Below, one piece after another: positions 30,323 through 31,497 of a stretch of 64,000 nucleotides of DNA (the stretch's first letter is position 1; every line of letters starts with the position of its first letter). The notes beneath the pieces were generated by a model. The model searched no databases. It was not told where the DNA came from and worked only from the letters and a program-made list of their open reading frames with translations. The position numbers were made by a program, and so were the translations under genes. This DNA is from Lachnospiraceae bacterium. GTDB lineage: Bacteria; Bacillota; Clostridia; Lachnospirales; Lachnospiraceae. The stretch lies in the NCBI GenBank assembly GCA_029053015.1, contig JAIDHX010000014.1, forward strand, positions 45,848 to 109,847, given 5' to 3'.

Positions 30323-30518
30323 GTTATCACGCTCCTATCTGCAAAAGGGTATAAAAAATACACCTGTACAAAACAGGTGCAGGAATGGTATAATATGTCT
30401 GTGAGGTGGCATATATACCGGCTGCAAGTGCCTGTATAGTCCTATCAGTGCGGTTCCTGTTGGCGCGGGAACCGCATTATTTATTGACTTTTGAACGTCA
30501 TATTGCTATAATATGCTT

Positions 30519-30616
30519 GACAAGAGAGCCAAAAGCTAGAATACACCTAGCCGCCGGCAGAGTATAGCTTAAAAAATAAGCGCCTTACCTTGCCAGGGCG
30601 GGGGCGCTTATTTTTT
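30519..30616 (+). ncRNA. Candidate antitoxin sRNA of type I TA module 1
   Basis: Consensus promoter TTGACT(30484)-N17-TATAAT(30507). Terminator AATAAGCGCC...GGCGCTTATT plus a T-run. It is convergent with the toxin ORF and overlaps its 3' end. Confidence 0.45.
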
Positions 30617-30697
30617 GCGTTTCTTTAGAGTTAAAACAAGAGTTATAACCGCGCAAAGCATAATTACAAAAGTGAATAAATCGCTGTATGTAACCAT
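30608..30697 (-). CDS. Type I toxin-like 29-aa hydrophobic peptide (holin-like toxin type)
   Basis: MVTYSDLFTFVIMLCAVITLVLTLKKRKK. It has an RBS (GGGAG N9 ATG), a TATAAT about 70 nt upstream on the minus strand, and shares a bidirectional terminator with the antisense RNA. Confidence 0.6.
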   Translation of the reverse strand: MVTYSDLFTFVIMLCAVITLVLTLKKRKK

Positions 30698-30827
30698 CGG
30701 CACCAGCTCCCTTCCTTAAACGTCCGGCTGCTGGCATATCGCCCCTTCGGCTCCCCTGGTAAGCATATTATATTGTCATGGTGCGGTTCTGTTTGACATT
30801 CTAGGGTACATGACCTATAATATACTT

Positions 30828-30924
30828 AACAAGGGAGCCGGAAGCTGGATCAGTCCCAGCCACCCCGGTAAGTAAGTACTACAAAATAGCGCCTACCGTG
30901 CCAGGGAGAGGGCGCTATTTTTTA
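30828..30924 (+). ncRNA. Candidate antitoxin sRNA of type I TA module 2
   Basis: TTGACA(30793)-N17-TATAAT(30816). Terminator AAATAGCGCC...GGCGCTATTT plus a T-run. It overlaps the 3' end of toxin 2. Confidence 0.45.
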
Positions 30925-31001
30925 TGCTTATCATTTCTGACAAGGGTTATAACAGCACAAAGCATGATGATAAATGTAAAAAGGTCTACCCATGTTATCA
31001 T
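30915..31001 (-). CDS. Type I toxin-like 28-aa hydrophobic peptide, paralog of 30608..30697
   Basis: MITWVDLFTFIIMLCAVITLVRNDKHKK. RBS AAAGGAG N9 ATG. The upstream block GGTAAGTATATTATATTGTCATGGTGC is the same as in module 1. Confidence 0.6.
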   Translation of the reverse strand: MITWVDLFTFIIMLCAVITLVRNDKHKK

Positions 31002-31086
31002 CGGCACCAGCTCCTTTCTATGTAGTAGGTGGCTGGAATGTGTCGCCCCTCCGGCTCCTTGGTAAGTATATTATATTGTCATGGTG

Positions 31087-31497
31087 CTACTTTTCAGTGT
31101 AACGCTTGATTTCTGTAAGTTCTTCTACTCGCTTTATTGCTTCTTTTTGTCCCGAATCATTTAACATATTGTACGCGTTCTTCAGCTTGTTGAATCGCGA
31201 TTCGTGAATAATATCGTCTTTTATTATCGGCGATAATTCAGAAGTTTCATAATCGGTTTTGTTGTAATAGTCGTTTTCATAAGCTAGTACGGCTTCTTGC
31301 TTAGATATGCCTAAAAGTTCCCATGTGGGTACTTCTAGTGCATTAGCTATTCTCTTAATTGTCTCTAGTTTTGGGTTAGCTTTTCCTAATTCATAACGTC
31401 TTATAGCAGAATCAGCAAAACCGCATTTTTCGCCAAGTTCCTTTTGTGTCATGCCTTTTTTAGAACGTAGTTCTTTTATTTTTTCGCCAACTGTCAT
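31087..31497 (-). CDS. cI-like XRE family repressor
   Basis: MTVGEKIKELRSKKGMTQKELGEKCGFADSAIRRYELGKANP, an HTH plus a C-terminal domain. RBS GGAGG before the ATG at 31497. It is divergent from the cro-like gene. Confidence 0.85.
   Translation of the reverse strand: MTVGEKIKELRSKKGMTQKELGEKCGFADSAIRRYELGKANPKLETIKRIANALEVPTWELLGISKQEAVLAYENDYYNKTDYETSELSPIIKDDIIHESRFNKLKNAYNMLNDSGQKEAIKRVEELTEIKRYTEK

Follow-up and report, generated by a model that had tools for sequence, protein, structure and literature searches.

The 64,000-nucleotide (nt) stretch of Lachnospiraceae DNA analysed here (the window; from contig JAIDHX010000014.1) carries two head-to-tail units, at positions 30484-30785 and 30793-31087, between an integrase gene (int) and a repressor gene. 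A reading made from the letters of the DNA (the sequence-only reading) had taken these units for tandem type I toxin-antitoxin (TA) modules, each pairing a small minus-strand peptide gene with a convergent plus-strand gene for an antisense RNA. The observation is confirmed and its type I interpretation supported, by computation alone. In what follows, toxin and antitoxin denote the predicted partners of each unit, the features of which are:

29147-30322, minus strand: integrase gene (Phage_integrase)
30484-30512, plus strand: promoter of antitoxin RNA 1, TTGACT-17-TATAAT, the -10 preceded by TG, 11/12 consensus match
30519-30617, plus strand: predicted antitoxin RNA 1, ~98 nt, fold z -2.75, 78.2 bits with covariance model R1
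30519-30526, plus strand: 5' tail of antitoxin RNA 1, GACAAGAG
30535-30539/30547-30551, plus strand: inner hairpin of antitoxin RNA 1, with outer stem GCC/GGC
30571-30616, both strands: bidirectional terminator of unit 1 (inverted repeat I3), 14-nt arms 30571-30584/30603-30616, 100% complementary
30608-30697, minus strand: toxin open reading frame (ORF) 1, MVTYSDLFTFVIMLCAVITLVLTLKKRKK, 29 amino acids (aa) plus stop, ATG start
30635-30642, minus strand: predicted second target site CUCUUGUU in toxin mRNA 1, codons 19-21, complementary to the antitoxin 5' tail
30698-30760, minus strand: leader of toxin mRNA 1, 63 nt, Shine-Dalgarno (SD) sequence GGGAG at 30707-30711, anti-SD at ~30730-30735
30765-30784, minus strand: toxin promoter 1, block GCACCATGACAATATAATAT, -10 at 30767-30772, predicted start ~30760, no -35
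30793-30821, plus strand: promoter of antitoxin RNA 2, TTGACA-17-TATAAT, 12/12 consensus match
30828-30925, plus strand: predicted antitoxin RNA 2, ~98 nt, 5' tail AACAAGGG, fold z -2.23, R1 80.3 bits
within 30828-30925, plus strand: hairpin GCUGG/CCAGC of antitoxin RNA 2, outer stem CCGG/CCGG
30880-30924, both strands: bidirectional terminator of unit 2 (inverted repeat I4), arms 30880-30893/30911-30924
30915-31001, minus strand: toxin ORF 2, MITWVDLFTFIIMLCAVITLVRNDKHKK, 28 aa plus stop, ATG start
30940-30946, minus strand: predicted second target site CCCUUGU in toxin mRNA 2, complementary to the antitoxin 2 tail ACAAGGG at 30829-30835
31002-31063, minus strand: leader of toxin mRNA 2, in which the anti-SD CCAGC pairs across the SD region GGAGCUGG
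31068-31087, minus strand: toxin promoter 2, the same conserved block, -10 at 31070-31075, beginning at the repressor stop codon
31087-31554, minus strand: repressor gene, Cro/CI-type helix-turn-helix (HTH)

The two units align over their full length with 82% mean column identity, and the D1, D3 and D4 families of the repeat finder have copies 303-309 base pairs (bp) apart; the duplication, given earlier as ~306 bp, measures ~304 bp. The TATAAT-containing block remarked on in the minus strand of each unit is the 20-mer GCACCATGACAATATAATAT, which carries a perfect -10 and occurs exactly twice in the window (30765-30784 and 31068-31087, minus strand), with 0.01 matches expected by chance even when three mismatches are allowed. 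The consensus promoters claimed for the plus strand match at 11 (unit 1) and 12 (unit 2) of 12 positions, and the ~100-nt RNA attributed to them is predicted at ~98 nt. This RNA would end at a bidirectional terminator, formed in both units by 14-nt inverted repeats that are perfect or near-perfect and lie between an A-run and a T-run. The proposed overlap with the 3' end of the toxin mRNA is present but spans only ~46 nt per unit, namely the terminator hairpin itself with the final two codons and the stop codon. The toxin genes can be called hidden from annotation, because the public gene calls for the same contig (ENA ERZ14208445, NODE_5, 161.8 kb) list no gene between the repressor gene and int.

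Relatives of the window units are numerous. The conserved promoter block alone is found in 13 viral stretches, and a promoter-to-promoter pattern (TGACAATATAATAT, 230-260 nt, ATATTATA) in 86 viral stretches, with at least 120 matches in species-representative genomes. After removal of chance matches, the module set, which includes the two window units, comprises at least 216 modules with at least 139 distinct peptides. Modules are carried by at least 110 genomes, mostly of Lachnospiraceae, and by many viral contigs; carriers among the matches listed include Blautia, Enterocloster, Eisenbergiella, Acetatifactor, Roseburia, Lachnoclostridium and related gut Clostridia. Family members were located in Blautia faecis DFI.3.66, Roseburia porci, Enterocloster hominis and Lachnoclostridium sp. 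An138, for example. The cassette, ~275 bp in length, is 78-87% identical between elements with unrelated flanks. The closest relatives of the window int region, among the matches listed, are metagenome-assembled genomes (MAGs) of Acetatifactor, and blastn and tblastn searches against isolated phages and plasmids gave no matches. Two groups of candidates were discarded: the 73 viral hits of a 16-mer SD/start pattern (GGAGCTGGTGCCGATG), none of which has the conserved promoter block and which are attributed to chance, and pattern matches in Listeria, Methanobacterium, Maribacter, Clostridium ihumii and others, which have no peptide and, where searched, no covariance-model hit. In 100 non-redundant neighbourhoods, the nearest gene past the antitoxin promoter encodes a recombinase in 46 (tyrosine integrase 39, serine recombinase 7), and upstream of the toxin promoter the gene closest by encodes a Cro/CI-type HTH protein in ~27; most neighbouring genes are on the strand of the toxin. 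The placement between int and a repressor gene, pointed out for the window, recurs across the family.

The antitoxin RNAs of the family, aligned as 47 distinct sequences, consist of a single-stranded 5' tail (AACAAGNN), a 5-bp hairpin set in a short outer stem, a variable spacer and the terminator. The cells of the hairpin are 99.6% paired, with changes on both sides in four of the five pairs, and those of the terminator helix are 97.9% paired, with both-side changes in nine of twelve. Altogether 203 cells have changed on both sides compared to 61 in column shuffles, counts that ignore phylogeny, and the pairing drops to 39-52% in slid-partner controls. The outer stem and terminator include G-U pairs in the plus-strand RNA; the RNA of this strand is favoured, since on the opposite strand these pairs would become A-C mismatches. 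Between the window units, the hairpin change is likewise compensatory (GCUAG/CUAGC in unit 1 to GCUGG/CCAGC in unit 2), and folding compared with shuffled sequences gives the z values listed above. The covariance model R1 recovers exactly two window copies, at 80 and 78 bits (next match 16 bits), and 105 copies in 100 genome loci outside its training set, including extra tandem copies missed by the search pattern, and no copies in loci caught by that pattern through chance. The antitoxin promoter stays close to the consensus throughout the family, with TTGACA at 17-nt spacing in 103 of 169 modules and a mean -35 match of 5.6/6. The antisense RNA thus appears, from sequence prediction, to be a real structured RNA family, and each unit is predicted to encode in cis an antisense RNA with its own promoter and with complementarity to the toxin mRNA, as type I systems do.

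The toxin mRNA is predicted to have an intrinsic lock on its translation. The leader, counted from the predicted start site up to the ATG, measures 63 nt, with the SD 9 nt upstream of the ATG, and in both window units CCAGC pairs with GCUGG just after the SD; the ~65-nt leader said to be able to pair across the ribosome-binding site (RBS) is thereby recovered. The pairing probability of the SD is 0.75 in unit 1 and 0.83 in unit 2, and its mean over 146 distinct leaders is 0.79 versus 0.60 when the upstream part is shuffled. In every one of these leaders the partner of the SD is 26-35 nt away from the predicted 5' end, and its variants stay complementary (CCAGC/GCUGG, CAGCC/GGCUG, UGGCC/GGCCA, CCACUCC/GGAGUGG, UCCCUUCC/GGGAGGGGA and CUCACC..UCCGA/CGGAAGGUGGUGA). 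The family falls into two subfamilies by peptide type (A, that of the window, and B). In the subfamily-A alignment the SD helix is 86% paired compared to 25-58% in slid controls; the MAFFT alignment of subfamily B gives only a moderate pair count, ascribed to its poor register. RNAalifold found no consensus in the MAFFT-aligned 5' leaders, and the SD hairpin is visible only by folding each sequence separately and in duplex tables. The sequestration of the SD predicted in this way would provide the intrinsic translational repression associated with type I toxins, and a strong antitoxin promoter combined with a weak toxin promoter is the usual type I arrangement.

Several features of the promoter region and the 5' ends stand beside these results. 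The block abutting the toxin -10 (30773-30784 and 31076-31087 in the window) reads (G/C)(C/T)AC(C/A)(A/T)TGACAA in all members and so includes a TTGACA-like hexamer 1 nt from TATAAT. The expected -35 place of toxin 1 overlaps the -35 of antitoxin promoter 2. Inverted DNA repeats at 30507-30533/30746-30772 and 30816-30834/31057-31075 make the first ~20 nt of the toxin mRNA and the antitoxin RNA alike, not complementary. The identity of the two 5' ends is 0.66 within a module versus 0.57 between modules, an effect seen in 95% of modules, which suggests concerted evolution or a shared partner. No substantiation was obtained for a hok-like fold-back, in which the toxin 5' end would pair with the terminator loop or with a 3' extension made by read-through, or for a stem-strand exchange between the similar 5' ends.

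The peptides encoded on the minus strand, with both ATG frames present as described earlier, are MVTYSDLFTFVIMLCAVITLVLTLKKRKK (29 aa) and MITWVDLFTFIIMLCAVITLVRNDKHKK (28 aa). Each has one strongly hydrophobic stretch, with a 15-residue maximum of 2.9-3.0 on the Kyte-Doolittle (KD) scale, and a basic tail (KKRKK in peptide 1, KHKK in peptide 2); the hydrophobic core of ORF 1 has a KD mean of 2.96 and the peptide a net charge of +4. The sequence-only reading had staked its claim on the conservation of these ORFs in homologous repeats elsewhere, and they are conserved with a coding type of substitution. A length of 26-30 aa, the SD and the ATG are kept across at least 139 distinct peptide variants, the ratio of nonsynonymous to synonymous change (pN/pS) is 0.23 in subfamily A and 0.30 in subfamily B, and the third codon position is the most variable. 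For the window pair of ORFs pS is 0.83 and pN 0.15, and other sense frames are not consistently open across the family. The small ORF is thus, from its substitution pattern, a gene under purifying selection.

These data bear on the idea that the ORF is fortuitous and that the locus encodes two non-coding RNAs that converge, or is a repeated promoter cassette, with a regulatory role in int or repressor expression. As this idea would have it, the two promoters are conserved and so is the RNA structure, and the surroundings suit it as well: toxin promoter 2 abuts the repressor stop codon, a terminator-like hairpin lies right before the int RBS, and a third conserved promoter-plus-hairpin unit adjoins int. 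A fortuitous ORF is nonetheless extremely unlikely in view of the pN/pS values, the third-position variation, the closure of the other sense frames, the retention of ORF length, SD and ATG in at least 139 variants, and the homology to Hol_Tox.

The Pfam family Hol_Tox is matched by 32 of 55 representative members at an E value of 0.01 or better (best 3e-9), and no other family is matched consistently by these representatives in profile searches; Fst_toxin of Pfam is matched neither by the window peptides nor by the family. By hhalign the family profile aligns to TxpA and to BsrE with 88% probability, and TxpA, BsrG, BsrE and PepG1 all pass Hol_Tox. Members match in PHROGs an unnamed family and a 'holin' family (three members), and in NCBIfam, weakly, the ComI competence inhibitor (four members, best 1.9e-5) and PepG1. 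Public protein names of members are 'Putative Holin-like Toxin (Hol-Tox)' or 'Holin-like toxin', and 2 of 10 peptide sequences were present in an exact look-up in a collection of 15 billion proteins. Subfamily A has the form MVTYSDLFTFVIMLCAVITLV...KK and subfamily B the form MSTYEEFMVILT..LIVAILNLKNKK. By these sequence comparisons, subfamily B belongs to Hol_Tox. Subfamily A shares with B the full DNA and RNA scaffold, the M-x-T-Y-[SE]-[DE] start, the helix and the basic tail, and it is best described, with the window peptides in it, as a divergent sister subfamily. The window peptides have the features of the type, being short with a single hydrophobic helix and a charged C-terminal tail, and their putative Hol_Tox membership rests on the shared module scaffold together with weak peptide similarity. 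The holin-like-toxin resemblance claimed for them therefore holds for the family in the profile search, but not at the Pfam threshold for the two peptides themselves.

A second predicted contact between the two RNAs lies outside the terminator. The most conserved part of the antitoxin RNA is its 5' tail, and the toxin mRNA has a defined site complementary to this tail. For subfamily B the site, at -25 to -18 from the ATG, is the SD hairpin's apical loop, and tail and loop co-vary (CAAGAC/GUCUUG, CAGGAC/GUUCUG, CAAGG/CCUUG, AUCAAG/CUUGAU and ACAGG/CCUGU). In subfamily A it is codons 19-21, where the pair AACAAGAG/CUCUUGUU occurs in 40 of 56 modules; a G at tail position 7 goes with the Thr codon ACC, not ACU, and the mismatched combination was found once only. 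The window units differ at this pair in a compensatory manner (AACAAGAG/CUCUUGUU versus AACAAGGG/CCCUUGU), an A-U pair having become G-C. When tails were permuted among modules, the observed complementarity was reached in 0 of 1000 permutations in either subfamily; these statistics ignore shared ancestry, and the co-varying classes occur on different backgrounds. The target is more accessible than its surroundings (0.77 versus 0.38 in B, 0.51 versus 0.38 in A). Coarser measures were less informative: the global duplex energy of the antitoxin 5' half with the toxin 5' region is not decisive (-33.6 versus -30.3 kcal/mol), and a 'longest helix' test on the whole mRNA did not separate cognate from non-cognate pairs, which the site-restricted permutation alone did. 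Tail and target are thus, as far as co-variation can tell, a co-evolving pair. The full-length cognate duplexes of the window (-91 and -93 kcal/mol) are predicted to be stronger than the cross pairs (-62 and -57 kcal/mol), so the two units are probably partly insulated from each other.

The same compensatory differences speak to whether one or both window copies are non-functional, decayed relics of the duplication. Peptide 2 has unusual residues (W4 and an RNDKHKK tail) and no Pfam match, and the T-run of terminator 2 is weaker on the toxin-sense side, as decay might leave them. Decay is still very unlikely: the ORFs, SDs, both promoters, hairpins and terminators are intact in both units, the differences in hairpin and tail/target are compensatory, the divergence is mostly synonymous, and tandem arrays recur elsewhere. 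Such arrays make up 7 of 190 clusters by the strict pattern and more by the covariance model, with four copies in contig L199 (2057-5455), three in L168 (379-1171) and more than one in L113, L122, L150 and L207. Taken together with L262, these contigs carry arrays of two to four modules, which often mix the subfamilies, a subfamily-A unit standing beside subfamily-B units in L199 and L122.

We consider it likely, with good confidence, that each window unit is a type I TA module of the TxpA/Hol_Tox superfamily carried by a small integrative, satellite-like element. In the mechanism proposed, the weak, -35-less minus-strand promoter would yield a predicted ~185-190-nt mRNA that encodes the 28-29-aa single-helix membrane peptide, and the anti-SD element, 26-35 nt from the 5' end of this mRNA, would lock the RBS in a hairpin. 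The near-consensus plus-strand promoter would yield the ~98-nt RNA ending at the same bidirectional terminator; as the terminator is common to both, the antitoxin would match the final ~46 nt of the toxin mRNA with perfect complementarity. The analogy with par/RNAII, RatA, SR4 and SR5 leads one to expect that the antisense RNA is abundant and short-lived. Docking may occur via the pairing of tail and site together with the complementary terminator loops, and the loop in the toxin sense keeps the form CUGG, a YUNR motif. The duplex would then zip up, and translation would be blocked and/or the RNAs degraded by RNase III-type decay. Upon loss of the element or shut-off of the antitoxin, the more stable toxin mRNA may be translated and its peptide damage the membrane, with the possible outcome that the element is stabilised or an infection aborted. 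The two window units have seemingly diverged enough to prefer their own partners.

Some results weigh against a type I module of this kind. The folding energies of the whole toxin mRNAs are ordinary (z -0.7 and -1.05), and the toxin promoter, while perfect at the -10, is without a recognisable -35 (family mean -35 match 2.5/6), so transcription may require a factor or read-through out of the repressor gene. On Hol_Tox (PF16935), window peptide 1 reaches 15 bits (E 0.023), below the gathering threshold of 23.3, and window peptide 2 has no Pfam match at all, Hol_Tox included. The covariation counts for the antitoxin RNA take no account of phylogeny, as said, and no Rfam family matches it above threshold (best ohsC at 24.2 bits with a cutoff of 50, and BsrG at 16.7 with a cutoff of 55). 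The weak ComI matches among members belong here too, as some Hol_Tox-like peptides are not classical toxins; YhzE-2 was non-toxic in Fozo et al. 2010 (PMC2887945).

These last points are the ones that favour a peptide without an addiction role, a small membrane regulator or exclusion factor whose dose is tuned by the antisense RNA and which acts through ComI-like inhibition, superinfection exclusion or abortive infection. Besides the four weak NCBIfam matches to ComI and the Hol_Tox/TxpA-like peptides that proved non-toxic in tests, the PHROG matches of unknown function or 'holin' fit such a role, and a gene for exclusion or defence would likewise be at home in a lysogeny module. Against it, the double translation lock (an SD hairpin and a strong antisense promoter, with a weak sense promoter) is a hallmark of harmful peptides, and the closest characterised relatives, TxpA, BsrG, BsrE and PepG1, are toxic. 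A non-addiction role is accordingly judged unlikely, and a toxin held in check by an antisense RNA is preferred.

The element that carries the modules is bounded by a perfect 34-bp direct repeat, TTTATGAAGAGAATATTAATCTTTTTTTAAGATG, at 29014-29047 and 39500-39533, which is probably attL/attR and which delimits an element of only ~10.5 kb. It includes the integrase, the two modules, CI-like and Cro-like regulators, an Erf recombinase, DnaD-like and DnaC-like replication proteins, a small terminase subunit and a sigma-like regulator, and it is inserted just downstream of a spoVAEB-family gene in a spore-forming host. PHROG scans of its larger ORFs found no capsid, tail, large-terminase or endolysin family. 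By gene content, the element looks like a phage satellite of the phage-inducible chromosomal island (PICI) type and not like a full prophage. Its composition bears on the thought that the peptide is a phage holin or lysis-timing factor with the antisense RNA as a lysis clock, for which the name 'holin-like' of the Pfam family and the three members that match a holin PHROG can be cited. The modules, however, adjoin int and the repressor gene and not a lysis cassette, the PHROG scans of the larger ORFs of the 10.5-kb element yielded no endolysin, capsid or tail family, and a 28-aa peptide with a single helix is atypical of canonical holins; a lysis function is thus highly improbable.

Other features were observed around the modules. 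Next to int, a third plus-strand promoter (TGTACA-18-TATAAT with an extended -10, TGGTATAAT; region 30365-30478) is followed by a G+C-rich hairpin at 30447-30478 and would yield an ~80-nt plus-strand RNA antisense to the int leader. A minus-strand terminator-like hairpin with a T-run (30359-30381) lies directly before the int RBS and leaves no room for an int promoter. In MAG loci of Acetatifactor the conservation of the 160-bp region by int is ~77%, and its hairpin shows compensatory changes. As a diverged antitoxin copy, this third promoter-plus-hairpin unit (30365-30478) was rejected, R1 finding only two copies in the window. At the other end of the repressor gene, a perfect 17-nt direct repeat, AAGAACAAAAATGTACT (31547-31563 and 31578-31594, 31 bp spacing), lies between divergent promoters, TTGACA-17-TATACT for the repressor (minus strand) and TTGACA-17-TATGAT for the cro-like gene (plus strand), and its copies probably serve as operators in the switch region. 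Positions 42000-50000 of the window, to the right of the element, have a G+C of 0.40-0.43 compared to ~0.48-0.52 elsewhere, with a second sigma-factor-like gene (42582-43157) and several ORFs without a family match, and may be another island.

Type I systems are almost invisible to annotation, and the cassette, in an interval left uncalled in the window, is present in more than 100 species-level genomes of dominant gut Clostridia. Cassettes of this kind could make prophages and phage satellites more stable or play a part in phage exclusion, and would in this way matter for the persistence of mobile elements in the gut microbiome. The comparative data yield a ready-made covariance model of the antitoxin RNA, and the explicit, co-varying pairing partners open the mechanism to compensatory mutagenesis. 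The cassette could also serve as a counter-selection marker in Lachnospiraceae, which are genetically hard to manipulate; type I toxins of Clostridioides difficile have already been put to use for counter-selection.

A literature search found no paper describing this Lachnospiraceae module family, and holin-like toxin genes are noted in Clostridium and in phage lysogeny regions (PMC9045289, PMC6070908). It is an even call whether the modules form an undescribed and very widespread type I family of Lachnospiraceae that joins a TxpA/Hol_Tox-type toxin to a par-like RNA logic. In such a family, the second contact site would have moved in evolution from the apical loop of the SD hairpin, its place in one subfamily, to codons 19-21 in the subfamily of the window, the ~98-nt antitoxin would share only the terminator with its target and rely on its 5' tail, and the 5' ends of the two RNAs would evolve in concert. 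If so, the ~275-bp cassette would be a portable, compact unit of addiction or defence that passes between the lysogeny modules of gut phages and satellites. The case is a solid one for an abundant, unannotated family, but no surprise to a specialist.

Of the characterised systems, txpA/RatA, bsrG/SR4, bsrE/SR5 and bsrH/as-bsrH of Bacillus subtilis are like the window modules in their prophage-like setting and in an antitoxin gene that converges on the 3' side. The txpA gene lies in the skin element of B. subtilis, and bsrG, bsrE and bsrH lie in its prophage regions. The toxins are of the Hol_Tox type, with an N-terminal M-S/V-T-Y-E/S, one hydrophobic helix and a basic tail as in the family described here. 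BsrE, with 30 aa, is close in size to the window peptides, and BsrH is about the same size as BsrE. In the Bacillus systems and in the window alike, the toxin mRNA partly sequesters its SD. The antitoxins of the Bacillus systems measure 160-220 nt and overlap the toxin mRNA by roughly 75-125 nt; by contrast with RatA and SR4, the window RNA is ~98 nt and overlaps by the ~46-nt terminator only, so the long overlap is not found. No RNA sequence similarity to the Bacillus antitoxins and no Rfam match above threshold were detected. The likeness to txpA and the bsr genes is based on the Hol_Tox scan of TxpA-type peptides, on PMC2887945 and PMC8594479, and on established knowledge. The txpA/RatA-bsrG/SR4 layout invoked by the sequence-only reading is thus upheld in being convergent and 3'-overlapping, but the overlap is far shorter and the RNA logic is nearer to that of par/RNAII.

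The modules of type I systems on mobile elements of Clostridia are a further point of likeness, with examples in C. difficile. The prophage systems of that species (CD0956.2/RCd10; Peltier et al. 2020) stabilise their elements according to the statements on them in PMC8594479; their toxin families and antitoxin RNAs are called unrelated to those of the window, a distinction drawn without sequence comparison. SprG/SprF of Staphylococcus aureus (PepG1) also combines, as here, a Hol_Tox toxin with a 3'-overlapping antisense RNA on a genomic island, though its two starts give longer peptides (44 and 31 aa) and its RNAs differ.

Convergent promoters with a common bidirectional intrinsic terminator, as in the window, are found in par (fst/RNA II) of Enterococcus faecalis plasmid pAD1 and in its homologues, SprA1/SprA1AS among them. 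In par, a 5' stem-loop hides the SD, and a second complementarity arises from DRa and DRb, direct repeats that are read in opposite directions (PMC7472228). The window has an analogous repeat, (G/A)ACAAGAG at 30519-30526 and 30635-30642, transcribed in opposite directions. The promoters, terminator, SD stem-loop and second contact site that make up the RNA architecture of the par type are thus all predicted in the window modules. The differences are that the window toxin is not Fst-like, with no PXXXG motif and no conserved Trp, that the window has one short repeat where par has DRa and DRb, and that the second site is inside the ORF in the subfamily of the window and not on the initiation region. 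The toxin superfamily and the general layout of the modules are known, and the variant lies in RNA features that would deserve a family of their own in an RNA database, with a predicted RNA architecture closer to par/RNAII than to RatA or SR4.

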